A stretch of DNA of 64,000 bases, taken from positions 15,309 to 79,308 of the IMG/VR virus record IMGVR_UViG_3300048588_000114. One strand, 5' to 3'. Within the stretch, counting starts at the first letter, position 1; every line of letters begins with the position of its first letter. The notes beneath the pieces were generated by a model. The model did no database searches. It was not told the origin of the DNA and saw nothing but the letters and a program-made list of their open reading frames with translations. The DNA is from a virus (Duplodnaviria; Heunggongvirae; Uroviricota; Caudoviricetes). Made by a program: the position numbers and the translations under genes. Positions 31,221-53,496 of the stretch are shown in pieces.

Positions 31221-31277
31221 TAGCCACCACAGTTCCCCAGAGTTATTGTGGATATAACCATAAAAACAAATAAAAAT

Positions 31278-38016: not shown

Positions 38017-38057
38017 ACAATAATTCAGCTATAATCCTGATAAGGTTAAGTAATGCT

Positions 38058-38090
38058 AAAAGGGTGGGGCTTAGGCTTCACCCTTTTTGT
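38058..38090 (+). terminator. rho-independent terminator
   Basis: GGGTG-GGGCTTAGGCTT-CACCC followed by TTTTTG. Confidence 0.55.
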
Positions 38091-38118
38091 TCATTGTTAT
38101 TTATCAAAAGTACTAATT

Positions 38119-39855
38119 ATGCTAAAGAGTAGCATTGACCTAAGTGTGCCTAAATTGATCTTACCTAACACAGCAAATGCTTCGTATGGTAGGAACGATG
38201 TGGTAACACTAGACCAAGCACGTGAAGTTTACCGGGTTGTAGATGACCTCATTGATGGACTGGATGATGTGTCCCTTGATTTGCTATTTAGTGCCTCAGA
38301 GCATGATGTAGACAGGGTTTTATCCACTTTCTTTGAAGAATCATATGCTGTAATGTATGGCGGTGAGACACGTATCAAGGAAACATCTGTCAATTATCTG
38401 GAGAGATTATCTGAGAATATAGAAGAAGTATTGAGGGTTGAGAATTTCAACTATTTCCTAACCAATGTTCTCACTAATTTTGATATAAATTGGCACCACT
38501 TAGAGTGGGGGAGTTTAGCTCAGAATAATCGCTTCACTAATTTTATTGCTCCACGTGACCACGGAAAGACCTATTTTTTCTCTAATGCAATGACTTGTTG
38601 GCGTCTTTATCGCTATAAAGACCCGGATAGTGTAGCTAGACATCTAAGAAAAAGAAATGAACTTAATCGAAAAGGCTTCATTATCACTAATGAGATGGAG
38701 TTGGCCGAAGAAATCTTAGAGACTGTAAAGAATACCATAGAGGAACATGATATTTTACATGAAAGGCTCTATCCTAATACAAAAGACAACTGGTCAAAGC
38801 GTAGTATTAAGTGTAAAAACGGAGCAAGAGTAGGTTTAAAATCCTACGGTGGTAGCTTCCGGGGGCGCCACCCCGGTTGGATTACAGTGGATGACTTCTT
38901 AAAAGACAATGTGCTCTATTCTGAGGTTCAAAGAAAGAAAGCAATCGACTACTTTCACTCAGTAATTATGAATGCTATTTCTCCGGGTGGTAGCGTTACT
39001 GTAGTTGGAACACCATTCCATCAAAATGACCTCTACGGAGACCTAAAGACCAAGAAAACTTGGAAATGCTTTGAATATCCTGCTATTACTCCGCATGGAG
39101 ATGTATTATGGAGAACCCGTTATTCCTATAAAGACCTTATTGAGAAGCGTGAGGCGCAAGGAAATATCATTTTCTCTCGTGAAATCTTAGTTGTACCCAT
39201 ATCAAGCAACTCTACTTTATTCCCTTGGAATGTATTGAAGCGTTGTTTCATAGGTATGCAAGACTACACATTAGTGAAAAATAGAGATTCATTCCCTAAG
39301 AAATTCACAAAAGTAGTAACTGCTTGTGATTTCGCAAGAAGCGCCAATGTAGGTGCTGATTATTCAGCATTTACAACTTGGGGGATAGACGAGAATGAGG
39401 ATATGTGGCTATTGCATATCTGGAGGGCTAAAGGTCGGTCATTCCGTGATCAAATCAATGCCGTTAAGTCAATAAACGCTAACTTCAGGCCAGATGTAAT
39501 TGTGATGGAGGTCAACCAATTCCAGCAGATTATGGCTGATATTGCTGAAGAAGAAGGATTAACCAATGTTGTTCCACATACTACTACTGGTAAGAATAAG
39601 CATGACTTTATCATCGGTGTTCCGGGCTTAGCTATCCTATTTGAGAAAGGAAAAATACACATACCACGTGGAGATCAGTACAGCCGGGATGCCTCTGATG
39701 TTCTCATGTCTGAATTAAGTGCGATAGCATGGACAGATGAGGGAATACAGGGTGTTGGAGAGCATGATGATATGGCTATATCTACTTGGTTGGGAACAAT
39801 TGGAGCAAGAAAAATAGGTGTTGGCTTTGGACTTAGCTTCTTAGCGGCAGCATAA
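38119..39855 (+). CDS. terL: terminase large subunit (TerL)
   Basis: ATPase Walker A FIAPRDHGKTYFFS and Walker B ITVDDF. C-terminal RNase-H-like nuclease acidic motifs VVTACDFARS...DYSAFTTWG, DVIVMEVNQFQ and GEHDDMAIS. Confidence 0.85.
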   Translation: MLKSSIDLSVPKLILPNTANASYGRNDVVTLDQAREVYRVVDDLIDGLDDVSLDLLFSASEHDVDRVLSTFFEESYAVMYGGETRIKETSVNYLERLSENIEEVLRVENFNYFLTNVLTNFDINWHHLEWGSLAQNNRFTNFIAPRDHGKTYFFSNAMTCWRLYRYKDPDSVARHLRKRNELNRKGFIITNEMELAEEILETVKNTIEEHDILHERLYPNTKDNWSKRSIKCKNGARVGLKSYGGSFRGRHPGWITVDDFLKDNVLYSEVQRKKAIDYFHSVIMNAISPGGSVTVVGTPFHQNDLYGDLKTKKTWKCFEYPAITPHGDVLWRTRYSYKDLIEKREAQGNIIFSREILVVPISSNSTLFPWNVLKRCFIGMQDYTLVKNRDSFPKKFTKVVTACDFARSANVGADYSAFTTWGIDENEDMWLLHIWRAKGRSFRDQINAVKSINANFRPDVIVMEVNQFQQIMADIAEEEGLTNVVPHTTTGKNKHDFIIGVPGLAILFEKGKIHIPRGDQYSRDASDVLMSELSAIAWTDEGIQGVGEHDDMAISTWLGTIGARKIGVGFGLSFLAAA

Positions 39856-39888
39856 ATCAGTTATAATATAGTTTTAAACATTGAAATA

Positions 39889-40500
39889 ATGGAGAAATCA
39901 GTAAATTCAACGCTTGGTCTTGATGACTTTATAGGTAAAGGTAGGACTTTAAACCTTAGTGGCTTCGGCTCTTTAGAGAAAGCTAAAGAAACAGACATTG
40001 AAAAAGGCGAATTAGGAGCCGCTTTAGGCTATAATTTTACCAATAACAACAAATTCAGCAAAAAAGGCAGCGATATTGCTGAGAAAATTAAGGCTCTTGT
40101 AGCTAAAGTCACTGCTAAGCAAACCCAAGCCCTTTCAGATATGATGAAAATAGTAGAGGACACCGGGGTGTCTCCTACTCAGCCTCTGGACAGATGGGAT
40201 AAAGAAAACCTATCGGATGAGGTGGCATCTACAATGAAAAGCTATTCTTGGGAACAGTGTTGTTTTGATTCTAATAATCAGACTGCTTGCGCTGACGTTT
40301 CTGTAACAACTGAGAAAAAGGCACCAAAAATGGCTGCTTCTCAAGACCACGCCGACAAGCACCGTCTCTACAATAGTATTTTGAATCAATTTTTGGATTG
40401 CTGCCGTGACTTAACGAAAGCCGATGTATTCCTAAGAAACGTAGATGAGAAGAAAACTTACACTTTGTCTCTGGATGAGATGAAGTCTTTAGGCTTCTAA
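39889..40500 (+). CDS. hypothetical protein
   Basis: 203 aa ORF. Confidence 0.55.
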   Translation: MEKSVNSTLGLDDFIGKGRTLNLSGFGSLEKAKETDIEKGELGAALGYNFTNNNKFSKKGSDIAEKIKALVAKVTAKQTQALSDMMKIVEDTGVSPTQPLDRWDKENLSDEVASTMKSYSWEQCCFDSNNQTACADVSVTTEKKAPKMAASQDHADKHRLYNSILNQFLDCCRDLTKADVFLRNVDEKKTYTLSLDEMKSLGF

Positions 40501-40501
40501 G

Positions 40502-40678
40502 ATGGCAAGTATTACTAAAAATGAATCTGAACTTACAAGCTACCGCCAGTTAGTAGCAGCTAACCAATTAGAGGTTAGAATAATCACCGACCCACGCCCG
40601 GTAGATTGGGTATTGACTGGATATGTATGGAATGATGATAAGGTGTGGAAACCTAACGAATTTTGGACTAACATTTAG
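40502..40678 (+). CDS. hypothetical small protein (58 aa)
   Basis: Manually read ORF MASITKNESELTSYRQL...; below the ORF-track cutoff. Confidence 0.3.
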   Translation: MASITKNESELTSYRQLVAANQLEVRIITDPRPVDWVLTGYVWNDDKVWKPNEFWTNI

Positions 40679-40689
40679 ATTTAACAACT

Positions 40690-41334
40690 ATGGCCGGAAG
40701 TTTAGCCGCAATACCACTGCTCAATGATAGCGACAGTGGACTTCACATAAAAAATAATATCATTAATGAGCTTGTGAGACGCATCAATTCAGCTGGATAT
40801 CAGATGACTGGTCTGAAATACACCAGCGGAACAGATTCAATAATTGATGGAGCTCAGCCTGAAACTTCTATGTTCGACATGGGTTCAGGTTCTGGTGATC
40901 TAAATTTATTACCCAATGAACTACAACAATCCACTCAATTGCGCATTAAAATTAGGGGGACATATGATAATGTGTCTGGTTCTTTTGCGGCAGATATAAA
41001 GGTGAAGTTAGGAGCAGATGTGCTCATAACTAAGACTTTAGCAACATTAAAAAATGCTTCAGATCAACATTTTGAAATTGAAGCAATGATAATGTGTAAA
41101 GTCACTGGCGCTTCTGGTGAAGTGTTTATTTCTGGCACTGCGACTTATGGACAAGGGGATGATCAGCCGCCTTATTTAGTAGGCTTAAATGACACTTCAG
41201 CAACAGTTTTAGATACAACCACAGCATTACAATTAGATGTTACACTAACTCCATCAAGTCCTGGTGGAGGTGATAGGTTTGTAATTCTTAGCGCTACTGT
41301 AGAAAAATTGAATTTAGTCATCTCTGAGTCATAA
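40690..41334 (+). CDS. hypothetical beta-rich protein (possible structural protein)
   Basis: 214 aa, Ser/Thr/Gly-rich. Confidence 0.55.
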   Translation: MAGSLAAIPLLNDSDSGLHIKNNIINELVRRINSAGYQMTGLKYTSGTDSIIDGAQPETSMFDMGSGSGDLNLLPNELQQSTQLRIKIRGTYDNVSGSFAADIKVKLGADVLITKTLATLKNASDQHFEIEAMIMCKVTGASGEVFISGTATYGQGDDQPPYLVGLNDTSATVLDTTTALQLDVTLTPSSPGGGDRFVILSATVEKLNLVISES

Positions 41335-41383
41335 TCAATCAGTTATTAATCCATATAAAATCAAACATTTAAAACTTATTCAA

Positions 41384-41977
41384 ATGAAAGCCGAACAAAA
41401 GAGATTAGAATTTAGAAGCAGTGTAGCAGCAGCTAATGAGCTGTTCTTCTCTGTAATGGTTATGGAAACTGGCCCGAATCGCTATTCGGTAGCTAATTTC
41501 TTTCCTGAATCATATTATGCTGTCAATTCATCTGCTAATATCGCAGCGTGGAACAGCTTTTATTCACTCATATCAAATACATTCAAGATAGGCGCTGAGT
41601 ATAAAAAGCAGGAGTTTATCGACTGGGCAGACACTAATGACTACTCTCTCATTGAGACTTCTCAGGAAAATGCTGCCGGACAAGTGTTCACATTAGATAT
41701 TGGCTCAGTTGCTTCTCTATCTGCAGGAACTCCAAACGCTACTGATGCTACCATAACCTGGTCAAACACAGGAGCGACTAAGAACACAAAAATTAATGTG
41801 TATCTATCTGATGATGATGGCGTGACTTACACCTTTGTAAGTTCAGTAGCCGCTAATGCTACTACCAGTGGAGCAATCACTGGCTTGACTACCGCTACAG
41901 CGTACAAAGTAAAGATCACGCCAGCTAATGCCTACGGCGAAGGAACTGGAGTGGAGGTTTCATTTACTACAGCATAA
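41384..41977 (+). CDS. protein with C-terminal fibronectin-III/Ig-like domain (possible virion surface protein)
   Basis: TITWSNTGATKNTKINVYLSDDDGVTYTFVSSV...AYKVKITPANAYGEG resembles an Fn3 domain. Confidence 0.55.
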   Translation: MKAEQKRLEFRSSVAAANELFFSVMVMETGPNRYSVANFFPESYYAVNSSANIAAWNSFYSLISNTFKIGAEYKKQEFIDWADTNDYSLIETSQENAAGQVFTLDIGSVASLSAGTPNATDATITWSNTGATKNTKINVYLSDDDGVTYTFVSSVAANATTSGAITGLTTATAYKVKITPANAYGEGTGVEVSFTTA

Positions 41978-42000
41978 CAAAATAAATTCTTATCTAAAGA

Positions 42001-42031
42001 GGAGGGGAGCCAAGCGGTTCCCCTTTTTTTA
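42001..42031 (+). terminator. rho-independent terminator
   Basis: GGAGGGGAGCCAAGCGGTTCCCC followed by TTTTTTT. Confidence 0.6.
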
Positions 42032-42222
42032 TTGCCGTTTTGGTGGTAAATTCTGCCTAAGGGAAATGTTAGGCAGTTAGCCAATACTTTACTTGCCCCG
42101 GAGGTTAAAACGGCATTAAAAGCAAAATATCAATAGTGATCTAACTTTAGCTATTCAAAGCAAAATTCTCCCATTGACTAACAGCACGTTACGTTCAAAA
42201 TTCAAAGTTTATCCAAAATAAA

Positions 42223-42254
42223 TTTGCTGCTTGTATCAAAAATTATTACCTTAG
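42223..42254 (+). promoter_or_regulatory. Bacteroidetes-type promoter (TTTG, 20 nt spacer, TACCTTAG)
   Basis: AAATAAATTTGCTGCTTGTATCAAAAATTATTACCTTAGTGG upstream of ATG 42304. Confidence 0.5.
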
Positions 42255-42303
42255 TGGCGATAGTCAAAGAAAACACCATTATTAACCAATAAAACCGCAA
42301 TTT

Positions 42304-42714
42304 ATGCTAAATCTCAGACACAAGCAGGAACCTCAGCGCATCTTTAGGCTGCAGGAACTAAATCTCAACAGAAACAAAGTTGACTACTTAGGGAAGCCCT
42401 ATGTATTAATTGAAATACGAAGCCTTCATTGTAAGGGCTTAGGATTCTCTAGATCAACATCATTCAACCTGTCGGAAATAGACATTTCACATCAGGACAA
42501 TCCCGGTACATATCCACTGAAGGCTGTTAACGTCTATCGTTGGCAAATTTCTCATAACCGTGTAATGCTCTATCACTGTCTAGCTATATTCTCGAAGAAT
42601 AAAGAGGGCGAAGGGGTAGGAGATATCATTGGTAAAACTGAAGTGGGAACATTCAATTCTATTGATGTACTAAGGGATTTTGCTAAAAGACACAAATTAC
42701 AACTAATTAACTAA
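42304..42714 (+). CDS. hypothetical protein
   Basis: 136 aa ORF downstream of promoter. Confidence 0.5.
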   Translation: MLNLRHKQEPQRIFRLQELNLNRNKVDYLGKPYVLIEIRSLHCKGLGFSRSTSFNLSEIDISHQDNPGTYPLKAVNVYRWQISHNRVMLYHCLAIFSKNKEGEGVGDIIGKTEVGTFNSIDVLRDFAKRHKLQLIN

Positions 42715-42732
42715 TCATTAAAACCAAATACA

Positions 42733-43305
42733 ATGAGCACAACTAAAGAAGACAAATACTCTAACACAGAAAAGTTAGATATGACGCCAACCTGGGTAGG
42801 CATACTCCCAGTTTATTTAGCCGCCTTTGAGGATGGCAACGCAACAGGACGTGAAGCAGCCAAGAAAGAGCTATATCGAATGGCTCAATTAGCTGATAAA
42901 TACGCTGAAATAGTAAAGCAACAAGAAGCTGAAGGCAGCACTGATCGTATAAAGGTCATTATTCCTAAAAATACTGGAAACAGTCACATGGATGATGATG
43001 CTTTCACTAAGTATATTGAATTTTTAGCTGGCGAAATGCGTAGTTTCCCGGAGAATATTAGACAGATCAAGCGGATTGATGATATTTCAGATATTGAGAG
43101 CCTCTCTCACTATGTTCCGAACCGATATAGCAAAGATTTAACGAATGAGGTAGATGGAATCAATCCAAATGCGGTCAATGATGGTCACCACTTAGTGATA
43201 ATACCAAATAATATCCGTGCAATAGTTGCTAACGGCTCTCCTCTTAGGATATTCATTGACAAAAAGGACATTAAGAAATTTGAAAAACAACTAAAACCAC
43301 TATAA
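42733..43305 (+). CDS. hypothetical protein
   Basis: 190 aa ORF. Confidence 0.55.
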   Translation: MSTTKEDKYSNTEKLDMTPTWVGILPVYLAAFEDGNATGREAAKKELYRMAQLADKYAEIVKQQEAEGSTDRIKVIIPKNTGNSHMDDDAFTKYIEFLAGEMRSFPENIRQIKRIDDISDIESLSHYVPNRYSKDLTNEVDGINPNAVNDGHHLVIIPNNIRAIVANGSPLRIFIDKKDIKKFEKQLKPL

Positions 43306-43310
43306 ACACT

Positions 43311-43673
43311 ATGATCAAAATCACACAAACCGAGGAAATGCTCAAAAGAGTTAGTAAGAACGATGTAATTTGGTTCTTCAAGAGCATAATGATGGATAAA
43401 AACCTAACAACCGGAGCAGCCATCAATCTCTTATCAGCCGGGTACAGTAAGTCAGAAAGACATCGTCATTATGCTCCTGATGGGGAAACTAAGGTGAAAG
43501 CCCTTATTGTTAAGATGAACTTAGCCGGAGCAGGCAAAAGAGAGTATTTTGAGTTCTATCTTGTTAGGGATAGTAAGAAGAATGTAGTGTTTCACCGCTC
43601 AATATCCCGTATCGAAACTATTGAAAATCATACTAAAACTAAGAAAAATGCCAAAGATAGCGTTCCGGCCTAA
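43311..43673 (+). CDS. hypothetical protein
   Basis: 120 aa ORF; 3' end overlaps next gene. Confidence 0.5.
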   Translation: MIKITQTEEMLKRVSKNDVIWFFKSIMMDKNLTTGAAINLLSAGYSKSERHRHYAPDGETKVKALIVKMNLAGAGKREYFEFYLVRDSKKNVVFHRSISRIETIENHTKTKKNAKDSVPA

Positions 43674-44673
43674 ATTAGGTCTAAATAAGAAAAATCTCAA
43701 ACAGCTTGAGTTAGTTAACTCAATCATTGAGGAATACAGGAAAATGGGCTACCGTCTAACCCTCAGGCAATTATACTACCAATTAGTCTCTCGTGATGTG
43801 ATAGCTAATGATGTGAAGGAATATGATAAGCTGAGCAATCTACTTACCAAGGGTCGAATGGGTGGCGTGGTTGATTGGGATGCAATTGAAGATAGGATTC
43901 GTCAGCCAAGATTGCCTTATGCGGTAGAAGGAGTTGATCACGCAATAGATGAAGCCTACAATCATTACCGTATTGATCGTCAGGAAGATCAACCTAACTA
44001 CATTGAATTATGGGTGGAGAAAGATGCCTTGAGTTCTGTTCTATGGCGTAAATCTAAGCATTACCACATAAATTTGATGGTTAACCGGGGCTATTCTTCC
44101 TGCACAGCTATGTATGACGCCTATTGTCGTTTTAAGGCCGCTACAGATCGTGGTCAAGAAATCCATATTCTCTATTGTGGAGACTTTGACCCATCAGGAC
44201 GTGATATGCTCAGGGACATTGATGAGAGACTTACAGAGTTCGGAGCTAAAACAATTATGGTTCACTCCATAGCCCTGACTATGAAGCAAATCAAAGCACA
44301 TAAGCCACCGCCTAATCCGGCTAAGATAACTGACCCAAGGGCTAAGGATTATATCATTCAACATGGTAATAAATCATGGGAAGTGGATGCTTTACGTCCA
44401 GAAACTCTACATGAAATCATTGATACTAATATTGAAAAACTCTTAGATTTAGAGCTATTCAATAAGAGAATGGAGCGTGAGGAAGCAGAAAAGGTCGAAT
44501 TAGCTTTAGTTCCTAAGCAGCGCAGAAATATCAATGAAGTTCAAAAGTATCTCAAAGAGAGAATGGAGCAACTTGATAGGAATATGAAGAGCGAGAAGCA
44601 AGCTAAAGAAGACCTTCGTAGGAATAAAGTGCTTCAAGCTGAATTGAAATCAGTATTTGATTTGATAAAATAG
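43648..44673 (+). CDS. Spo11/topoisomerase-VI-A-like protein (5Y-CAP-like winged helix plus Toprim domain)
   Basis: LTLRQLYYQLVS resembles the Spo11/TopoVIA active-site Tyr motif. IELWVEKDAL gives the Toprim Glu. ILYCGDFDPSGRDML gives Toprim DxDxxG. No TopoVIB-like ATPase partner nearby. Confidence 0.65.
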   Translation: MPKIAFRPKLGLNKKNLKQLELVNSIIEEYRKMGYRLTLRQLYYQLVSRDVIANDVKEYDKLSNLLTKGRMGGVVDWDAIEDRIRQPRLPYAVEGVDHAIDEAYNHYRIDRQEDQPNYIELWVEKDALSSVLWRKSKHYHINLMVNRGYSSCTAMYDAYCRFKAATDRGQEIHILYCGDFDPSGRDMLRDIDERLTEFGAKTIMVHSIALTMKQIKAHKPPPNPAKITDPRAKDYIIQHGNKSWEVDALRPETLHEIIDTNIEKLLDLELFNKRMEREEAEKVELALVPKQRRNINEVQKYLKERMEQLDRNMKSEKQAKEDLRRNKVLQAELKSVFDLIK

Positions 44674-44678
44674 GATAA

Positions 44679-45302
44679 ATGAGCAAACTTTGCATCTGGA
44701 TTATAGGGGGCAGCGGGGTGGGTAAGACCACCTTAGCTGCCTCTATCCATAGTATGATAGCCGAATTGACCAAAGCGGCATTAAAACCACAAATAATTGG
44801 CTGGGGAGACAAAGATAAAGAATTTGTATTTACCCGAATGTCTAAATATTCATCTAATTTAGGGACTTTTGGACAGACTGCCTGTGGAGGAACTGATAGT
44901 CTCTCTACTAAAGATCGCATATCAGGTTCCTATTTGGAAGCCATAAAACATTCCCCGATTGTAGTAATTGAAGGGATTATGGCAACTTCGACTTGGTTTG
45001 ATTGGATCAAAGAACCAGATAGAACTAAATTATTCTTAATTCATCTTGAAATCAGCCCGGAGGAGAACTTTCGCCGTCTAAGAATCCGCAGGGCTGCTCG
45101 CAAAGGTATCAAACCGGAAGATGTAGAATTACAGCCAAAAACGCTTGATAATTTATCATCGAAGCTCAAAAACTTCCGCAATCTCTACAGGAAGATTGCT
45201 CCCAAGTCAGACTACCATCTTCAAATTCACTGCGAAGTCCTAAATCAGGAGCGCACCGCTGATATTGTTCGACAATTTATGATCGACCATATTCTTAGCT
45301 AA
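44679..45302 (+). CDS. P-loop nucleotide/nucleic-acid kinase, paralog 1
   Basis: Walker A IIGGSGVGKTT. Shares with 48590 and 49261 a G(T/L)DS(L/V)S(T/S)K segment, a hhhhE Walker-B-like element and NFRRLRIRR. Confidence 0.7.
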   Translation: MSKLCIWIIGGSGVGKTTLAASIHSMIAELTKAALKPQIIGWGDKDKEFVFTRMSKYSSNLGTFGQTACGGTDSLSTKDRISGSYLEAIKHSPIVVIEGIMATSTWFDWIKEPDRTKLFLIHLEISPEENFRRLRIRRAARKGIKPEDVELQPKTLDNLSSKLKNFRNLYRKIAPKSDYHLQIHCEVLNQERTADIVRQFMIDHILS

Positions 45303-45593
45303 TCCTAAGCAACAACAGTTATACAAAGTTATCGGTTTCTCAAGAGCAAGACATGGTGTACTGAGTTTGTAGTAGGTTCTCCACTTCACCCGCTTGCAAC
45401 ACTATACTGAATCTAAGTTGGCAATTTAATTAGCCGTTTTCAGATAGAGGTCATTAGACTTACACTTTGTAGGTTTTGTCCACCTTTTATCTCCCACTAC
45501 CTGAATAGTACAGAAAGTTGCTGTTCACATGTGAGACGACCAATCAACGTTAATTCCCCTTACAAATTAGTGACTTTTTAGCCCTTATTCCAT

Positions 45594-46115
45594 ATGGAAA
45601 ACACACAAAATGTAGACATTACCACGTTCGTTGGATATGAAGATGTCAAAAATTTAGTTTATAAGCTAATTCAGGCAGAATTGAATAAGCCCTCATTAGA
45701 GCAAGTCATCGGTTATGATCTGGCGAATTGTATTCGTAACATGGACTTCTACCAGTTACAGGACAAACACCGTCAAGGATTTGATGTTTATCTAATAAAA
45801 TTACTAAGCGGCGCAGACCGTCTTTCCCTCATTTACTCAGACATATTAGAGACGGAGGAAGAATTAGCAGTTTTTCGTGCGAAGTATGATGAATTGAAGC
45901 GTCAGTTTGATATTGCCGTTGCCCGCCCGGATTGGAAAGCTGGCGTAACAGAAGTTCAAGTCACGGAGGAAGGCAATCAATACTATGGAAAGCAGTACAT
46001 AGTTAGTAAGTTTTACTACGTCCCTTCAGAGAAGGTCTGGATGGTTGAAGTAAAACACCCAAATAATCCTAACAACAAAAACATTTTTAAACACACACAA
46101 TTAGGTAAAATCTAA
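45594..46115 (+). CDS. hypothetical protein
   Basis: 173 aa ORF after a 290 bp ORF-free gap. Confidence 0.5.
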   Translation: MENTQNVDITTFVGYEDVKNLVYKLIQAELNKPSLEQVIGYDLANCIRNMDFYQLQDKHRQGFDVYLIKLLSGADRLSLIYSDILETEEELAVFRAKYDELKRQFDIAVARPDWKAGVTEVQVTEEGNQYYGKQYIVSKFYYVPSEKVWMVEVKHPNNPNNKNIFKHTQLGKI

Positions 46116-46252
46116 TGGAAAATCAAAGCAAACGCACTCCTTCGAACATTAAGGACATCAAAAAGCGGCTGAAAAATGGAGAGCCGACAACGTTTCATGA
46201 AAGAAACATAGTTAATATCTATGATAAGAAGAAACTAAAGAACAAAAAGTAA
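46115..46252 (+). CDS. hypothetical small basic protein (45 aa)
   Basis: Manually read; start and stop both overlap neighbours (TAATG). Confidence 0.25.
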   Translation: MENQSKRTPSNIKDIKKRLKNGEPTTFHERNIVNIYDKKKLKNKK

Positions 46253-47241
46253 TGAAAACAGACATAGTTGTAATTGGTAGTGGCCTTATAGGTAGTATGG
46301 TCACTAAATATCTTCGTGAAGTGCGAGGTATGGAAGTAGTGATAATAGACCAAAAGAACACCATGGCCGCTTCCAAGTGTAGTTTTGGCGTGTGGAAAGA
46401 AGGTTGGGTCAATGAGGTTATCCAGAAAGAATACAAGGACGGCTTAGAGCTATTAGATACTTTTAGCGGAGGAATCAAAGAAGAAGAATTCATTATCAAG
46501 CCGAAGCCCTATAAAAACAGGTCTATGGTAGATACATATGAGGTTAAATTAGAGATGAAGGCAGAAACCTTTAAGCGGGTGGATTGCTCTCTACTTCTGA
46601 ATGAGGAATCAATCAATGCTACGGTTCTCTCTATAGATCAAAACCGGGTTACGATCTTACATGCTGGCAAAGAGCAACGCAAAGAAGTCATTGTAGCTAA
46701 GCATATTGTGGTTGCTGCTGGGGTTTGGACTACCGACATACTAACAGAGAATGGACTGATGAATAATCTGCCTTATCTTGACCGCCAGTGGGGGGCTGTA
46801 TTCCATCTAAAAGGGAATGGCGATGTGAATTTACCAGCATCACAGATGCAAGAGTGGGCACCCTATAAACAGTCAGTATTCGTCAATTTAGGCAATAATC
46901 GTGGTGTATTTGGAGATGGTGCAACCATTAAAAATCCTAAGCCGAATGACGATAAGGTGAGATTTGCTTCTGATAGAATTGTTCTCCATATGAATGATTT
47001 ACTAAAGAGAAACATTAAAGACGGCAAAGAAACCTATTCTCAGACTAAATTCACAGGAAGCATAACTGAAATTCTTGAAGGCTACAGGCCGTATCTAAAT
47101 AAGCAGAAATCACATACCGGGCGTTTTGTGAATCGTCACTCAGATTATGTTATTTCAGCTACAGGAGGCGCTAAAAACTCTACGATTCTTTGCGGTCACA
47201 TGGCTAAAGAAGTGTGGAGGCTAATTAAGGCCGCTGGGTAA
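46252..47241 (+). CDS. FAD-dependent oxidoreductase (DAO/glycine-oxidase-like Rossmann)
   Basis: N-terminal dinucleotide fold MKTDIVVIGSGLIGSMV...VVIIDQ (GxGxxG plus acidic end of beta2); C-terminal SATGGAKNSTILCGHMA. Confidence 0.65.
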   Translation: MKTDIVVIGSGLIGSMVTKYLREVRGMEVVIIDQKNTMAASKCSFGVWKEGWVNEVIQKEYKDGLELLDTFSGGIKEEEFIIKPKPYKNRSMVDTYEVKLEMKAETFKRVDCSLLLNEESINATVLSIDQNRVTILHAGKEQRKEVIVAKHIVVAAGVWTTDILTENGLMNNLPYLDRQWGAVFHLKGNGDVNLPASQMQEWAPYKQSVFVNLGNNRGVFGDGATIKNPKPNDDKVRFASDRIVLHMNDLLKRNIKDGKETYSQTKFTGSITEILEGYRPYLNKQKSHTGRFVNRHSDYVISATGGAKNSTILCGHMAKEVWRLIKAAG

Positions 47242-47305
47242 TTCTCAAAGTTATTAGCTACTCTACTAAAGAAGTAAAAGACATACCAATAAAATCAAGA
47301 AAACC

Positions 47306-47569
47306 ATGGCAAAACAAGAAACAAAAGCACCTGCAAAAAAGGCAGCGGCTAAAACGGATGATGGACAAATCTGGGCTTACAATGTAAGAGCTAAAGAAAA
47401 GCAAGTGATGCACAACGCTGTTATCAGCAAAACCACTCGTGGTGGTTTTATGGCTTCCGGAACATCGGAAGATGGCGAAACGAAGCTCACCACCATCCTA
47501 TCAGCAGCTAATGCTGAGAAGTTCGTTGAAAGCGGCGTAGCTAAAAAAGACAAGAAAACCTGGAAATAG
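47306..47569 (+). CDS. hypothetical small basic protein
   Basis: 87 aa, Lys/Ala-rich N-terminus. Confidence 0.45.
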   Translation: MAKQETKAPAKKAAAKTDDGQIWAYNVRAKEKQVMHNAVISKTTRGGFMASGTSEDGETKLTTILSAANAEKFVESGVAKKDKKTWK

Positions 47570-47601
47570 TTATTCTCAAAAACTAAACCCGGCTAAGAAG
47601 T

Positions 47602-47634
47602 GATGCCCTGCTGTGAAGTGGGGCATTTCTTTTA
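47602..47634 (+). terminator. rho-independent terminator
   Basis: GATGCCC-TGCTGTGAAGTG-GGGCAT followed by TTCTTTT. Confidence 0.55.
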
Positions 47635-47654
47635 ACCCACAGTTATCTAACAAC

Positions 47655-48593
47655 ATGAGCAGAAACATCTATCGAGATTTTGATATATTTGCCCGGGCAT
47701 TAGTTAAGTCTAATGATGTAGACCCGGTTTATCCAGTAGTTAGGGGAATCCTAAAAGCCTATCCAAAATACCAGCCTGAGTGGTTTATTTTCGTGTATGT
47801 TGCTTTCTACAATCTTGAGACGGCCATACAGTTCTGCGATTTATGGCCTACGGCTTTGAGTTTCCAAGAACCTCAGGCACATCGGGAGTTTATGGAGATG
47901 CGATTGGCTGGTAAACTAAAGAAATTTGGCCATGAGCGCCGGGGGTCTTGCCGGAATCCTAAGAATCAATTGGAGTTATTTGATGCTGCGACTTGTTTCA
48001 CAGAAGATTGTATTAAGGGACGTGGCTTGAAGCAAGCTGATAATCTAACCTTTCGTCAGGTGTTAATGGAGCATCCTTGGCACGGTTATTGGTCTTCCTA
48101 CAAGATCGCAGAATTGTTTGAGAAATCTTTAGGCTGGGACAACTTAAAGATCAATGACTTAGGAATTGACGGTAGAGACCCTAACAGTAATGATGGCCCT
48201 ATTGGAGGACTAAGATGGCTGTTTGATAGAGAAAGTCAATATAATTCCCTTTGGTATAAGATATGGAATAGATTTGGCAAGCGATTAAGCAAAGAATATG
48301 GGTGGGGGATAGGAGAAACAGAGACTTGCTTGTGTAAATTTCATAAATTGATGACCGGGAAGTATTATGTGGGTCATGATGTGGATGAATTTTATGATTT
48401 AAGGCATGTTTTAAGCCCGGAGAACTATCGAAACATATTGGGCAATAATTTTACTGGCTTTTGGGAAGAAGGCATTAAAGGGGTTAAAAAGCACCAAAAA
48501 TCGCACTACCAAAAAACTGGAGAGATTTTGAATTCACATTATGGGGATTCTGTTTCCCCGGTTGATGTGGAAAAACTAATACTTGAATTATGA
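47655..48593 (+). CDS. hypothetical ~313 aa enzyme-like protein, paralog A of a duplicated family (candidate DNA-modification transferase)
   Basis: ORF 47613-48593; ATG 47655 follows terminator. N-terminal NIYRDFD...EWFIFVYVAFYN is paralogous to NVYRELD...LFHILVFRIFNQ in 49889-50872. Alternates with P-loop kinases. Confidence 0.6.
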   Translation: MSRNIYRDFDIFARALVKSNDVDPVYPVVRGILKAYPKYQPEWFIFVYVAFYNLETAIQFCDLWPTALSFQEPQAHREFMEMRLAGKLKKFGHERRGSCRNPKNQLELFDAATCFTEDCIKGRGLKQADNLTFRQVLMEHPWHGYWSSYKIAELFEKSLGWDNLKINDLGIDGRDPNSNDGPIGGLRWLFDRESQYNSLWYKIWNRFGKRLSKEYGWGIGETETCLCKFHKLMTGKYYVGHDVDEFYDLRHVLSPENYRNILGNNFTGFWEEGIKGVKKHQKSHYQKTGEILNSHYGDSVSPVDVEKLILEL

Positions 48594-49264
48594 GTAAGCA
48601 GAAAATCTTAGTAGCAATACATGGCGGCGGCGGGAGTGGTAAGACCACCCAGCTAAAGAAGCTAATTGATTTCCTTTCAGAAGGAAAAAATGATGGAATT
48701 GTGGAGTCAAAAGTCATATCTAAGGAGAAGATGGACTACTGTTACACGCTTTATCCTAAGGCTAATCTAGCCGTTATAGGTAAATTAGGCGATAATCAAT
48801 GTACTGGATTAGATACAGTTTACAGTAAGTTAGGAAATGAAGGGGTTGGAAGAAGTATCAAAGCTGCCTTGGAGAATCCGGAAGTAGATATCATAGCAAT
48901 TGAGTGTTTGTTTTTAACCTTCAGTTGGTATGAGACTTGGGTGAAAATGGGTATTAGGAGCCAATTTAAGCTACTTTTCGTGCTGCTTGATCTATCTCTC
49001 TGGGACAACTTTAGGAGAATTCAATTGAGGCGTTTTAAGAAGAAGCCGGATGGCGTTGAGGACTATCGTGATGTGTTTCTTGAAGATACCGTTTACAAGA
49101 ATGTAGGCACTAAGAATGGTGAAGCGAGAATTATCTATCAAAAGATAGCCGGGGAACATCCTAAAAGCCTAACAAAGTGCGCTGATATGTGTTTTACGGT
49201 TGACGCTAAACTCCATCCTGACCTAATATTCAATAAGATTATTAATGCCATTTATAAGATATGA
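48590..49264 (+). CDS. P-loop kinase, paralog 2
   Basis: Walker A AIHGGGGSGKTT; QCTGLDTVYSKLGNEGV and NFRRIQLRR motifs shared with paralogs. Confidence 0.7.
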   Translation: MSKQKILVAIHGGGGSGKTTQLKKLIDFLSEGKNDGIVESKVISKEKMDYCYTLYPKANLAVIGKLGDNQCTGLDTVYSKLGNEGVGRSIKAALENPEVDIIAIECLFLTFSWYETWVKMGIRSQFKLLFVLLDLSLWDNFRRIQLRRFKKKPDGVEDYRDVFLEDTVYKNVGTKNGEARIIYQKIAGEHPKSLTKCADMCFTVDAKLHPDLIFNKIINAIYKI

Positions 49265-49884
49265 CTACTATCATCTGGATTGTTGCTGGCCTTTCTGTAG
49301 GCAAAACCACGTTAAACAAGGATTTGATTGAGGTTTTAGGTGATGAGCCACGCCGTCTCGTAGAGGGGACAAACAATGGTGTGCCTTATTGTTATACCCG
49401 TTATGGGGTGATTTGTAGTTTAGGCAATCTGAATGATTCCCAATGCTCAGGATTAGATAGAGTTAGTAGTAAATTAAAGAATGAAGGAATTGAAGAATCT
49501 ATAAAACAGGCAGTTAAGGATGGTGTTCAATTCATAATTGTAGAGAGTATCATGTCAGCGTCAACTTGGCTTGATTTCTTAAAGAAGCATACCGATAATT
49601 TACTAATGGTTCACTTATGTTGTGATTTTGAATCCAATGTGAGACGTCTAAAATACAGGCAATTTACAAGCCCGGATTATAAGGGAATTGCTGAAGCCCC
49701 AGTTGATATTAGACTTACTGATGGGAATTATGAGTTTATTCGCAAGACCCGGAAGCAATATCTGGCCATATATGAAAAGTTCAAAGACAAAGTTAATCAC
49801 AGTGTTAGTATTGATACTACCAACATCGGCACTAAAAAGGTGATGAAGGGAGTGCTGAAGCTAATTAACGACAGTCTTTCCTAA
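49261..49884 (+). CDS. P-loop kinase, paralog 3
   Basis: Walker A IVAGLSVGKTT; QCSGLDRVSSKLKNEGI and NVRRLKYRQ motifs. Confidence 0.7.
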   Translation: MTTIIWIVAGLSVGKTTLNKDLIEVLGDEPRRLVEGTNNGVPYCYTRYGVICSLGNLNDSQCSGLDRVSSKLKNEGIEESIKQAVKDGVQFIIVESIMSASTWLDFLKKHTDNLLMVHLCCDFESNVRRLKYRQFTSPDYKGIAEAPVDIRLTDGNYEFIRKTRKQYLAIYEKFKDKVNHSVSIDTTNIGTKKVMKGVLKLINDSLS

Positions 49885-49888
49885 GATT

Positions 49889-50872
49889 ATGGCATTATTA
49901 AATTTTCAAAGCAGCTATGGGACTAACTCAAATTTAGAGAAATCCCTACCGGACGCATCACTACAATTAGATGAGTTCCATTTAGACACGTTCTTCGGAA
50001 CAATGCTGGAGCGTCAGCGTATTACAATGAAGCGGCTTCGTGGAGAGCCGTGGCCTTGGACAGAGAATAAGTTTCTCCGGGACTATAAATTCACTAATGT
50101 TTACCGGGAATTAGATCGTAACTCTCAATGGGAAATCAACAATATCATAAAAAACGAGAAGTTGACTGACGAAGATACCCTATTCCACATCCTAGTTTTT
50201 AGGATATTTAATCAACCGGACTTCTTTGAATACAATAAAAAACACAAGGGATGGAAGAATGGTATTCCGCTCTTTAGAGAATTTAGTAAGGAGGCATTTG
50301 AACAGGCCATTTATGATTACAGGGCAACAGGGAATAATCCCTTCACTAATGCTTACCTTACTAATTCTCAATCTTGTCCCGGTCAAACCCGTGATTGGTG
50401 TTATGGCAACGTCATAATCCCTAACTATCATGAGCGTGTCCCAGAGTTTTTGGAGGCGTTTAAAGAGCATAAAACCGCTAAAGAGACAGCTAAAATGCTA
50501 GTAAGTCTCAAGTCAGCAGGTTGGTTTGTGGCTCATGAGTTCTATATTTCACTATGCTATATCGCTAAATATCGGGAAGAAACCTTCTTTCCTTGGACTG
50601 AAATGGATTGGACTAATGTTGGGCCTGGCGCTAGCTTAGGTTTAAGGCTTATATTTCCGAATCTTGATAGTACTTCTAAGCAATTAGAAGGTATCTTTTT
50701 GCTCCACAAAATGGCTAGATCTAAATTTAAGCAATTAGGTGGTTTTGAATGGTTAGATGAACGCAAAGAATTCACCCTTCATCAGATAGAATTTTGGTTG
50801 TGCGAATACGGGAAATACTATAAAATGATGGTTGGAGAAGGAAAGCAACGCTCTAAGTACATTCCACACTAA
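49889..50872 (+). CDS. hypothetical 327 aa enzyme-like protein, paralog B (candidate DNA-modification transferase)
   Basis: PWPWTENKFLRDYKFTNVYRELDR segment; same length and shared N-terminal motif with 47655-48593. Confidence 0.6.
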   Translation: MALLNFQSSYGTNSNLEKSLPDASLQLDEFHLDTFFGTMLERQRITMKRLRGEPWPWTENKFLRDYKFTNVYRELDRNSQWEINNIIKNEKLTDEDTLFHILVFRIFNQPDFFEYNKKHKGWKNGIPLFREFSKEAFEQAIYDYRATGNNPFTNAYLTNSQSCPGQTRDWCYGNVIIPNYHERVPEFLEAFKEHKTAKETAKMLVSLKSAGWFVAHEFYISLCYIAKYREETFFPWTEMDWTNVGPGASLGLRLIFPNLDSTSKQLEGIFLLHKMARSKFKQLGGFEWLDERKEFTLHQIEFWLCEYGKYYKMMVGEGKQRSKYIPH

Positions 50873-51358
50873 ATGTTTAAGAAAGGCAATACTGTAACAT
50901 TAGGGCGCAAGCTAAATTTAAGCGATGAAGAGCGCAAAAGACGTGCTAATCATGTTAAATCGAATATAAATGCCAAAGGACTAAATGTTGAGAATGGTAA
51001 CTATTGTAAATTCTACGAAGTTGATGGATTGAGAATCCAAGGTAGATGGGAATTAGCCTATATACTAAATCTAAAGGCATTAGGTCTTCCGTTACCAACT
51101 AAATCCAAGATAATTTTAACTCCAACTGGTGCCTATACGCCTGATTTTGAATTTGATGATTATTTTGTAGAGGTTAAATCCGCCTACACCATTAGGACTT
51201 GTAGGACAAATGGCCAATTTGAGAAGATAAAATGGGTTAGTAATAACATTAAAAAAGTTAGGATAGTTCTAATAACAGAAAGAAGAGTTGGGGAGATTTT
51301 ATTCAGGCAAAGATACGCAAAATACCAACGTTCTCTAAGGAACCCTTATCAGATATAG
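50873..51358 (+). CDS. PD-(D/E)xK-type nuclease-like protein
   Basis: TPDFEFDDYFVEVKS contains D...ExK in the expected beta-strand context; a YxxxE-G motif lies upstream. Confidence 0.45.
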   Translation: MFKKGNTVTLGRKLNLSDEERKRRANHVKSNINAKGLNVENGNYCKFYEVDGLRIQGRWELAYILNLKALGLPLPTKSKIILTPTGAYTPDFEFDDYFVEVKSAYTIRTCRTNGQFEKIKWVSNNIKKVRIVLITERRVGEILFRQRYAKYQRSLRNPYQI

Positions 51359-51384
51359 GTTCATTAAACTAATTTCATTCCAAA

Positions 51385-53484: not shown

Positions 53485-53496
53485 AAGCATTTCGTT

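Follow-up and report, generated by a model that had tools for sequence, protein, structure and literature searches.

The DNA analysed (64 kb of a contig of ∼110 kb; hereafter, the window) encodes TerL, a portal protein, a head protease and an MCP-like protein, which confirms the phage origin proposed for the gene under study. When 20 kb of the window was compared by megablast with 50,697 phage records no DNA match was obtained; the source phage is uncultured. The gene (Table 1) sits between terminase and portal, outside any obvious replication module, and is followed, 5 nt beyond its stop codon, by the P-loop kinase gene that heads a block of thymidine-hypermodification genes, the kinase cassette immediately upstream of which the initial annotation had placed it. 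The ORF is genuine: the JGI gene call (P0001) specifies the same 341-aa product (100% identity), and the three motifs quoted in the initial annotation are all present in the translation. An upstream TTG codon at position 43621 was ruled out as the start site, since both the homologues and the JGI call begin at the ATG at position 43648.

Table 1. Features of the Topo mini-A gene, its product and the adjoining gene block (positions within the window)
Feature	Position	Strand	Basis or remarks
Topo mini-A CDS	43648..44673	+	341 aa plus stop; uninterrupted translation
N-terminal 5Y-CAP-like winged helix, aa ∼12-110	43681..43977	+	helices 14-32, 39-48, 56-71
R40-Q-L-Y43-Y44, in LTLRQLYYQLVS	43765..43779	+	Y44, predicted catalytic Tyr; R40, partner Arg
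Toprim domain, aa ∼115-265	43990..44442	+	strands 117-123, 142-145, 171-177, 203-209 with flanking helices
W-V-E124-K125-D-A (within IELWVEKDAL), Toprim glutamate motif	44011..44028	+	E124 in 149/151, K125 in 150/151
D179-F-D181-P-S-G184, in ILYCGDFDPSGRDML, DxDxxG Toprim metal-binding motif	44182..44199	+	motif conservation
P-P-P-N-P-A-K226-I-T-D229-P-R231-A, strongly conserved family motif	44305..44343	+	alignment
S243-W244-E245-V-D247-A-L249, Mini-A signature (xWELDAL, T2BI box)	44374..44394	+	alignment
Helical tail at the C-terminus, aa 268-341: three long helices rich in Lys, Arg and Glu	44449..44670	+	AF2
Thymidine-hypermodification gene block	44679..50872	+	Pfam/PHROG; begins 5 nt past Mini-A stop
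P-loop kinases	44679-45302, 48590-49264, 49261-49884	+	Pfam/PHROG
FAD oxidoreductase	46252-47241	+	Pfam/PHROG
ADDT-like amino acid:DNA transferase	47613-48593	+	Pfam/PHROG
5-hmdU DNA kinase helical domain	49889-50872	+	Pfam/PHROG

The protein matched PHROG 6247 ('DNA topoisomerase') over aa 12–297 (E = 3.3e-86). BLASTP showed it to be 41% identical (E = 5e-70) to gp51 of PaMx25, the Mini-A of a Nipunavirus, and tblastn revealed 42% identity (E = 1e-45) to Pseudomonas phage NP1, a genus-mate of PaMx25 that is a named example of Mini-A in Fig. 2 of PMC7671362. The Topo mini-A family was described in that paper (Takahashi, Da Cunha, Krupovic, Mayer, Forterre and Gadelle, NAR Genom Bioinform 2019/2020), and is catalogued as PHROG 6247; RefSeq phage records give its homologues the label 'DNA topoisomerase'. 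The window protein adds a member to this already published family and does not represent a new kind of protein. It has the truncated 5Y-CAP plus Toprim architecture and the size of a Mini-A (with a lineage-specific helical tail added), the RxxY/FY motif (R40-Q-L-Y43-Y44), the metal ligands in the order E then DxDxxG (E124; D179-F-D181-P-S-G184), the C-terminal xWELDAL box (S243-W-E-V-D-A-L249) and a viral location among tailed-phage structural genes, and is accompanied by no B subunit among the window ORFs of ≥260 aa. A search of 1.84 billion representatives at E ≤ 1e-3 gave at least 7,464 clusters of homologues (50% identity), and homologues were also found in 85 phage records and in no fewer than 566 IMG/VR stretches; the closest cultured Mini-A proteins, those of Flavobacterium phages, are 52% identical to that of the window. 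The motif and family match is far beyond chance, given the PHROG 6247 E-value and the 7,464 clusters of homologues.

The window protein had no Pfam match even at E ≤ 10, did not reach the gathering threshold for TP6A_N or TOP6A-Spo11_Toprim, and gave nothing meaningful in the NCBIfam search; other family members showed sub-threshold Pfam matches only (TP6A_N in 18 of 114, best E = 0.011). When the single sequence and two profiles (A1 and A2) were compared with PDB chains no HMM-level similarity was detected, and the few matches returned (a cysteine protease inhibitor, an acetyltransferase and a RIKEN protein) were put down to chance similarity with low-complexity or short segments. Fold, motifs and the published analysis are thus what connects the protein with Top6A.

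Conservation was counted in an alignment of 151 sequences (the window protein and 150 representatives 36–57% identical to it). R40 and Y44 were each kept in 148 of the 151, while position 43 varied, being aromatic or His (Y in 133, F in 8, H in 5); the second tyrosine, Y44, is therefore the conserved one. The conservation of the Tyr pair among homologues, on which the initial annotation had made its proposal depend, was thus borne out, with F or H accepted at the first position. The spacing R40...Y44 equals that of R99...Y103 in M. jannaschii Top6A (PMC7671362 is the source of the R99/Y103 numbering and of RxxY/FY as a Mini-A rule). The reading of IELWVEKDAL and DxDxxG as the Toprim glutamate and metal-binding motifs stood equally well, E124, D179, D181 and G184 being kept in 147–149 of the 151 sequences (D179, D181 and S183 in 148, G184 in 147); the position between the two aspartates is His in 129 and Phe in the window protein. 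The following family motif was similarly constant (K226 in 148, D229 in 147, R231 in 146), as was the signature (W244 in 139, E245 in 147, D247 in 141), position 246 of which is Leu in 78 sequences and Val in 62, including that of the window. In profile A2, R40, Y44, K125, K226 and E245 were invariant. According to PMC7671362, where the xWELDAL signature and what it does in the 1D3Y dimer are described, the equivalent Glu of Top6A touches the Arg/Tyr of the partner subunit.

Inteins were found at three conserved motifs in different family members; those of P0150 and P0194 split the E124 motif between ELW and xEKDA, and that of P0224 is inserted after K226. Inteins are typically located in the active sites of important DNA enzymes, and their presence at three catalytic-looking motifs is a separate line of evidence that both the motifs and the protein are important to the carrier phages. 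A catalytically inert DNA-binding protein, as annotated in some SEA-PHAGES records, is accordingly hard to credit: although homologues from Microbacterium and Curtobacterium phages are labelled 'DNA binding protein', and the winged helix is a DNA-binding fold, the Tyr, the Arg and all metal ligands are present in ∼98% of the 150 representatives at identities down to 36%, and the inteins target these motifs. We regard this reading as extremely unlikely.

The AF2 model of the 341-aa protein (pLDDT 87.4, pTM 0.79) contains both a CAP-like winged helix, with short strands at ∼36–38 and ∼79–81, and a Toprim fold, the two elements without which the initial annotation would have fallen; its description as a stand-alone Spo11/TopoVIA-like protein, with a winged helix bearing the R..YY helix plus a Toprim domain, was sustained. 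The C-terminal tail forms helices at 268–286, 288–315 and 320–340 (block pLDDT mostly 76–94). Residues beyond ∼285 are missing from most family members, which are typically ∼290 aa long, and the tail is covered only by the closest relatives (P0002, P0003, P0110 and P0114); C-terminal extensions differ across the family.

Foldseek returned MksG with a probability of 0.98 and M. mazei Top6A with one of 0.89; Top6A was the best structural match both of the whole protein and of the N-terminal domain alone, and for the latter no MksG or JetD chain appeared among the best 60 matches. An alternative is a Toprim nuclease like JetD/MksG, which would cleave by metal-ion hydrolysis without a covalent Tyr intermediate and degrade, for example, host or competitor DNA. 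This is unlikely, given that the CAP-like domain of MksG contains no catalytic Tyr (PMC10123090), while here R40 and Y44 are kept in 148 of 151 sequences and in the Top6A spacing, that no PADLOC model matched the protein even at E ≤ 1, and that the SMC-like JetABC genes were not detected among the scanned window ORFs. The JetD comparison offered in the initial annotation thus holds for the fold and is less apt in other respects.

The same annotation had noted the absence of a nearby GHKL/TopoVIB partner, and none was found: ORFs of ≥260 aa in the 64-kb window gave no Pfam match to GHKL, HATPase or Top6B at E ≤ 1e-3. A conserved 'Mini-B' was equally elusive. All-vs-all BLASTP of the ORFs within 1.5 kb of Mini-A at 15 diverse loci detected no adjacent gene common to them, neighbours matching only between the window and a close relative (L008), and ORF clustering over 95 loci produced no neighbour family in more than 15 of the 63 locus groups. 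One apparent neighbour cluster (12 groups, 354 aa) was discarded as an antisense ORF overlapping Mini-A. Mini-A proteins, as described in PMC7671362, lack the N-terminal 5Y-CAP portion that binds Top6B, and the window protein begins only ∼12 residues ahead of the first CAP helix; neither the Top6B partner nor the Top6B-binding segment of an A2B2 topoisomerase VI is seen. These observations weigh against a true type IIB topoisomerase that works with an unrecognised ATPase partner, be it a divergent 'Mini-B', a host protein or a helicase/translocase of the phage, for instance SNF2. The protein shares its catalytic core with Topo VI and Topo VIII, and pairing with a viral or host protein is left possible by Takahashi et al. 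(both as given in PMC7671362); an SNF2-family ATPase gene is found in 15 of the 63 locus groups, at a median of 780 bp from Mini-A, and the window is only part of the phage genome. However, no SNF2 gene was found in the window, where the sole helicase match is of the UvrD type (positions 9–1520), and we consider a hidden partner improbable.

Across the family, Mini-A genes sit mostly in phage replication modules. Besides the SNF2 helicase, recurrent neighbours in the 63 locus groups were a ResIII helicase (8 groups), a DUF2800 PD-(D/E)XK nuclease (5), PolA (5) and a VapE primase-helicase (5). Near Mini-A, PaMx25 bears ligase, Sak4 and Cas4-like exonuclease genes, RDJL Phi 1 a DNA polymerase gene, and SPN19 and Delta a thyX gene; in Listeria phage LWP01 an excisionase gene adjoins it, and integrase genes lie nearby in 6 of the 63 groups. 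Small non-tailed viruses such as HCIV-1 also carry Mini-A.

The gene order of the hypermodification block is the same in L008, where Mini-A and the kinase are each 71% identical to those of the window (the upstream genes being 31–42% identical), and takes a looser form in the much more distant contig L020 (identities of 46% for TerL, 54% for Mini-A, 40% for HMUDK and 46% for the portal protein). This synteny is due to shared ancestry. One independent-looking case of Mini-A near modification genes is the Pseudanabaena phage Pam3, where aGPT-Pplase2, a PLP enzyme and a radical-SAM gene are all found within 4 kb of it; in nipunaviruses (Queuovirinae) the distance from Mini-A to queE/queC-type genes is ∼7 kb. 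In L020 the adjacency is still seen at protein identities of ∼40–54%, and a similar pairing occurs in Pam3; the adjacency is missing from ∼99% of the sampled Mini-A loci. A homologue of HMUDK, the 5-hmdU kinase, was present within 10 kb of Mini-A in only 1 of 80 IMG/VR loci, and ADDT-like and FAD-oxidoreductase genes in none of the 80, which rules out a family-wide link with hypermodification. Cultured phages with a 5-hmdU kinase (451) were mostly phages of Salmonella, Vibrio, Klebsiella, Escherichia, Dickeya and Pseudomonas; these dominant genera are absent from the ten most frequent Mini-A genera, except for the shared names Salmonella and Pseudomonas, and among the records listed the kinase phages of these two are of different types from the Mini-A carriers. 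Adjacency to 5-hmdU genes is a trait of the lineage formed by the window, L008 and L020, not of the family.

The coupling to DNA modification suggested in the initial annotation was therefore upheld as synteny within one lineage, with Pam3 in addition, and not for the family at large. Functional coupling would mean that the protein opens or relaxes DNA for the post-replicative 5-hmdU kinase and the transferases, or cuts only unmodified DNA. The 5-nt spacing to the kinase gene, the arrangement kept in L008 and in the distant L020, and the modification genes of Pam3 and the nipunaviruses speak for it; yet the IMG/VR counts and the differing types of the kinase phages (among the records listed) speak against it, as do the excisionase of LWP01 and the integrases in 6 of 63 groups, and common descent accounts for the synteny of the three related contigs. 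Such coupling appears distinctly improbable. A more specific version, in which the Mini-A of this lineage is a self-sufficient Spo11-like breaker that reads the thymidine-modification state, cutting unmodified DNA, either the host's or DNA still awaiting modification, and sparing the hypermodified phage genome, is if anything more doubtful. Were it true, the protein would be a modification-gated nuclease for host shutoff or replication licensing, co-inherited with the 5-hmdU kinase block between terminase and portal.

The explanation we consider probable is that the protein is a virus-borne, stand-alone homologue of the type IIB topoisomerase A subunit that nicks or breaks DNA on its own in the service of replication or recombination. 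The analysis itself shows family membership, the fold, the conservation of the catalytic residues, the lack of a recognisable B subunit and the replication-module context; dimerisation, covalent catalysis and the biological role are what we infer beyond these. The protein would act as an Mg2+-dependent homodimer in which the acidic cluster of the Toprim domain (E124, D179 and D181) holds Mg2+ and Tyr44, placed by Arg40, attacks the DNA backbone, leaving a 5′-phosphotyrosyl protein–DNA link and a free 3′-OH, as in Top6A and Spo11. Docking of the SWEVDAL box onto the Arg/Tyr helix of the partner subunit probably gates cleavage. Nicks or double-strand breaks made, and perhaps resealed, by the protein alone would be more probable than strand passage; with no ATP-driven gate, a processive strand-passage topoisomerase is unlikely. 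Stand-alone cleavage is plausible, since mouse SPO11 by itself forms covalent double-strand breaks in vitro (PMC11922746). Cleavage might supply 3′ ends from which rolling-circle or recombination-dependent replication could proceed; alternatively, it might serve to relax or decatenate replicated DNA.

A special case of this explanation is a site-specific nickase that starts rolling-circle (sigma) replication via a 5′-phosphotyrosine, in the manner of an HUH Rep. That role was proposed for the archaeal skuldviruses, in which Mini-A is the sole replication gene (Medvedeva et al., bioRxiv 10.1101/2021.07.29.453957); a 5′-Tyr link with a free 3′-OH suits priming, and HCIV-1 is an example of the small non-tailed viruses with Mini-A. 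Against this, the majority of Mini-A-bearing tailed phages have polymerase, primase and helicase genes of their own, and for the window protein we hold this special case to be unlikely.

The stand-alone A-subunit homologue that we favour belongs to a very large virus-borne family in which the cleavage residues of Spo11 and Topo VI appear to be intact, and whose role was still called unexplored in a December 2024 review (PMC11894792). Two questions to which the family is relevant are how DNA replication is started or resolved in phages, and whether Topo VI and Spo11 descend from a viral A subunit that stood alone. The window adds no new principle; it adds a well-supported member, whose coiled C-terminal tail is distinctive, and shows a lineage in which Mini-A travels with a thymidine-hypermodification cassette, an opening for a concrete experiment on substrate specificity.

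Among known systems, the likeness to JetD/MksG (the Wadjet/MksBEFG nuclease; PDB 8B7F) is limited to the fold: MksG works with an SMC-like complex in host defence, whereas the window protein is phage-encoded and keeps the R40/Y44 pair. Spo11 (PDB 8URU) is eukaryotic, dimerises weakly and is controlled by many partners. Topo VIII, a plasmid-borne type IIB relative found in mobile elements, also lacks the initial portion of 5Y-CAP, but is described in PMC7671362 as having B-like and A-like moieties (fused or split) and an extra conserved Arg after the Tyr, neither of which is seen here; its box reads RVELNAM, and that of Topo VI R/KxExxA/S, against xWELDAL in Mini-A. With Top6A (PDB 1D3Y, 2ZBK and 2Q2E) the window protein shares the Arg...Tyr spacing, the Toprim Glu, the DxD motif and, at the C-terminal interface, a box containing Glu; it differs in having only ∼14–20% identity in structural alignments with no HMM-level similarity, in lacking the Top6B-binding N-terminal segment and any detected Top6B/GHKL gene, and in being viral rather than chromosomal. 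The closest correspondence is with Topo mini-A: size class, architecture, RxxY/FY, E...DxDxxG, the xWELDAL box, viral location and the lack of a B subunit all agree. Compared with other Mini-A proteins, that of the window has Val for Leu in the signature (like 62 of the 151) and, within DxD, Phe where His is usual, carries a Lys/Arg/Glu-rich helical tail of ∼55 aa seen only in its closest relatives, and is encoded between terminase and portal, beside a thymidine-hypermodification block.

The open reading frame that the initial annotation had described as specifying a stand-alone Spo11/TopoVIA-like protein was found in the translation together with the three peptides quoted from it. A TTG at 43621 would give a longer reading, but two points favour the ATG at 43648 as the start: JGI calls the identical protein (P0001) with a length of 341 aa, and homologues align from that Met. 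The gene has a G+C content of 40%, the same composition as its surroundings. It is not preceded by an obvious Shine-Dalgarno sequence; taken together with the fact that the best cultured relatives (tblastn) are carried by Flavobacterium phages, this hints at a Bacteroidota host. A 120-aa ORF that overlaps the start of the gene by 26 nt is weakly conserved in the related contig L008 (31% identity); it matched no family, and no homologue of it adjoins the corresponding gene in 13 other loci compared.

Features of the window discussed in the text
Feature	Position	Strand	Detail
UvrD-type helicase	9-1520	+	E 1e-18
Patatin-like phospholipase	29135-30028	+	E 3e-15
SPFH/Band 7 protein	31248-32780	+	E 7.5e-16
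TerL-to-portal region	38053-55149	+	~13.6 kb between the two genes
TerL	38053-39855	+	flanks Mini-A/cassette block
120-aa ORF	43311-43673	+
Mini-A ORF	43648..44673	+	341 aa
RQLYY	43765-43779	+	aa 40-44
WVEKDA	44011-44028	+	aa 122-127
DFDPSG	44182-44199	+	aa 179-184
P-loop kinase paralogue	44679-45302	+	AAA_18 / P-loop part of PHROG 800
P-loop kinase paralogue	48590-49264	+	AAA_18 / P-loop part of PHROG 800
P-loop kinase paralogue	49261-49884	+	AAA_18 / P-loop part of PHROG 800
HMUDK helical-domain protein	49889-50872	+	HMUDK_hel, E 1e-53
Portal	53497-55149	+	other flank of Mini-A/cassette block
662-aa Topo IB-like protein	57963-59951	+	Topoisom_I, E 4.8e-18, aa 380-595
Head protease	59970-61703
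MCP-like protein	61769-63289

The window protein matched nothing in Pfam, even at E ≤ 10, and nothing meaningful in NCBIfam, PADLOC or the PDB sequences. PHROG 6247 ('DNA topoisomerase') matched aa 12-297 with an E value of 3.3e-86, and tblastn found homologues, all of <60% identity, in 85 phage records. The carriers include Flavobacterium FPSV phages, Pseudomonas NP1, PaMx25 and JG054, Xylella Sano and Salvo, Chi-like Salmonella phages, Roseobacter RDJL, Brevundimonas, Microbacterium, Curtobacterium and Bacteroides phages, Listeria LWP01, Pseudanabaena Pam3 and the archaeal virus HCIV-1; their homologues are labelled variously 'DNA topoisomerase', 'DNA topoisomerase VI', 'DNA binding protein' or hypothetical. 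Takahashi et al. (PMC7671362) use the name Mini-A for ~300-aa proteins, encoded by viruses and proviruses of bacteria and archaea, whose only domains are a Toprim and a truncated 5Y-CAP; no B subunit is encoded nearby. They are recognised by E...DxDxxG metal ligands, by an Arg preceding the catalytic Tyr (RxxY/FY) and, at the C-terminus, by an 'xWELDAL' box that sets them apart. One of the two examples displayed there is that of Pseudomonas phage NP1, to which the window protein is 42% identical by tblastn; against its orthologue from PaMx25, a sister Nipunavirus, the identity is 41% (E 5e-70). All the defining features checked are present in the window protein, including the signature S243-W-E-V-D-A-L249, and it thus joins the Topo mini-A proteins, a known family, as a new member.

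The family is large: a word-indexed search with the window protein gave >7,000 matches, none with a Pfam domain, and when 1.84 billion cluster representatives were scanned exhaustively with HMMER, 7,464 clusters scored E ≤ 1e-3, of which 1,006 reached E ≤ 1e-30. The window protein was aligned with the best 150 representatives, which share 36-57% identity with it; R40, Y44, D179 and D181 were each conserved in 148 of the 151 sequences, E124 in 149, K125 in 150, G184 and E245 in 147, D247 in 141 and W244 in 139; W77, D82, R85, E120, G148, S151, K226, D229, R231 and G240 were also near-invariant. The Tyr pair, whose conservation had been set as a test of the initial annotation, held: the second residue is invariant, while position 43 is occupied by Tyr (133), Phe (8) or His (5), the pattern described for type IIB enzymes (second Tyr invariant, first aromatic or His) in the available text of PMC7671362. 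That text gives no role for the PPPNPAK-x-TDxRA motif, which lies among the near-invariant positions. Inteins (Hint, Intein_splicing and LAGLIDADG_3 matches) interrupt four family members, at the Toprim Glu motif ELW|xEKDA in P0150 and P0194, at NRGY|SS in P0158, and at PNPxK|xD, after the invariant Lys of PPNPxK, in P0224; their presence at three conserved motifs in different members independently supports these motifs being functional. Some members carry additional sequence, any of which may be a gene-calling artefact: an N-terminal DUF1643 domain (E 7.6e-23) in P0188, a Cys-rich zinc-ribbon-like C-terminal extension in P0138, a 160-aa C-terminal extension in P0193, and a 40-70-aa insertion in the Toprim domain, after window-protein residue ~201, in ~20 of the 150 representatives.

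The AlphaFold2 model of the window protein is confident (pLDDT 87.4, pTM 0.79; 44-sequence alignment), and the top Foldseek ranks against the PDB were MksG (8b7f, prob 0.98) and Methanosarcina mazei Top6A (9o7o, prob 0.89); a difference in the angle between the domains keeps the global TM-scores low. Searches of PDB sequences with profiles found nothing; among 114 diverse members, sub-threshold Pfam matches recurred to TP6A_N (18), DUF2399 (16), JetD_C (5) and TOP6A-Spo11_Toprim (3). Since the trace at the sequence level is only sub-threshold, the description 'Top6A-like' rests on the fold, the order and spacing of the motifs, and the published phylogeny; by predicted fold and motif arrangement, the proposed winged helix plus Toprim architecture was correct. 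An alternative is that Mini-A, like MksG, uses this related fold as a plain metal-dependent nuclease. However, MksG has lost the CAP tyrosine (PMC10123090), whereas Mini-A retains it almost without exception.

No GHKL/HATPase or Top6B-type match was found by Pfam scan in any window ORF of at least 260 aa, in agreement with the suggestion that no partner is encoded nearby. Among the genes adjoining Mini-A in 15 diverse loci, homology was found only between those of the window and those of L008, a close relative. When neighbours were counted in 80 IMG/VR loci plus other loci (63 groups at 80% Mini-A identity), SNF2-family helicases (~450 aa) occurred in 15 groups, on either side of Mini-A at a median distance of 780 bp, ResIII/DEAD helicases in eight, tyrosine integrases in six, and DUF2800 PD-(D/E)XK nucleases, family A DNA polymerases, VapE primase-helicases and DUF5131 in five each. 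The SNF2 gene, the commonest neighbour in the IMG/VR loci (L016-L095), was not found in the window. In PaMx25 the order is ligase, small ORF, Mini-A, Sak4 annealase and, further on, Cas4-like exonuclease and helicase; in RDJL Phi 1, DNA polymerase, small ORF and Mini-A; in LWP01, excisionase, Mini-A and, further on, DNA polymerase. ThyX adjoins Mini-A in SPN19 and Delta, and PCNA, PolB, PD-(D/E)XK nucleases and helicases lie near it on metagenomic contigs. What these neighbourhoods have in common is a DNA replication, recombination and nucleotide-metabolism module.

In the window, a P-loop kinase gene starts 5 nt after the end of Mini-A and is followed by genes for an FAD oxidoreductase and an ADDT-like amino acid:DNA transferase, two further kinase genes of the P-loop type and one for an HMUDK (5-hmdU DNA kinase) helical domain. 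The kinase thus appears to be split into three stand-alone P-loop paralogues and a separate helical-domain protein, and the PHROG 800 label 'terminase small subunit' looks like a misnomer for an HMUDK-type kinase family. Mini-A and this hypermodification cassette lie between TerL and portal, a layout common to the window, L008 and the distant contig L020. The window order is kept in L008 (Mini-A and kinase 71%, HMUDK 75% identical) and is looser in L020 (TerL 46%, kinase, Mini-A 54%, HMUDK 40%, portal 46%). Elsewhere, aGPT-Pplase2, PLP-enzyme and radical-SAM genes lie within 4 kb of Mini-A in Pam3, and que genes ∼7 kb from it in Nipunaviruses (Queuovirinae). An HMUDK homologue was found within 10 kb of Mini-A in only one of the 80 IMG/VR loci (L020), and other cassette genes in none. 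The 451 cultured phages with HMUDK infect mostly Salmonella, Vibrio, Klebsiella, Escherichia, Dickeya and Pseudomonas; among the records listed, the carriers are of ~155-163 kb in Salmonella and ~60-64 kb in Pseudomonas, while those of Mini-A are ~59-60-kb Chi-like and ~58-kb NP1/PaMx25-type phages, respectively. This rarity, the dissimilarity of the cultured carriers listed, and the proximity of Mini-A to an excisionase or integrases in other loci argue against a general link with modification. The coupling put forward in the initial annotation is at best specific to the lineage of the window, L008 and L020; the adjacency is a lineage trait, compatible with Mini-A and the cassette both belonging to a DNA-metabolism gene pool, and does not constitute evidence for coupling across the family.

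The window also encodes a 662-aa protein with a type IB topoisomerase catalytic core, the N-terminal part of which matches PHROG 2859 (unknown function). Its gene lies inside the head-gene block, after portal and before the head protease and MCP-like genes, and the product may be virion-associated; with Mini-A, it gives this phage two topoisomerase-like genes.

The protein has an invariant Arg and Tyr on the second helix of the predicted winged helix, an invariant acidic Toprim triad and the Mini-A interface box. It would work as a homodimer whose active sites are composite, like those of Top6A and Spo11. Y44 would attack DNA with the assistance of Mg2+, leaving a 5′-phosphotyrosyl link and a free 3′-OH, and the WEVDAL box would gate cleavage. 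Mini-A may provide 3′ ends from which rolling-circle or recombination-dependent replication can proceed, give topological relief, or attack host DNA; rolling-circle initiation has been proposed for archaeal skuldviruses (bioRxiv 10.1101/2021.07.29.453957). The role of Mini-A was still termed unexplored in a 2024 review (PMC11894792), and the family remains an attractive uncharacterised enzyme class. Covalent double-strand breaks arise in vitro with mouse SPO11 alone (PMC11922746); an A-type subunit can therefore cut without an ATPase. Compared with Top6A as described in PMC7671362, the spacing of R40 and Y44 matches that of R99 and Y103, and E245 and A248 correspond to E340 and S343.
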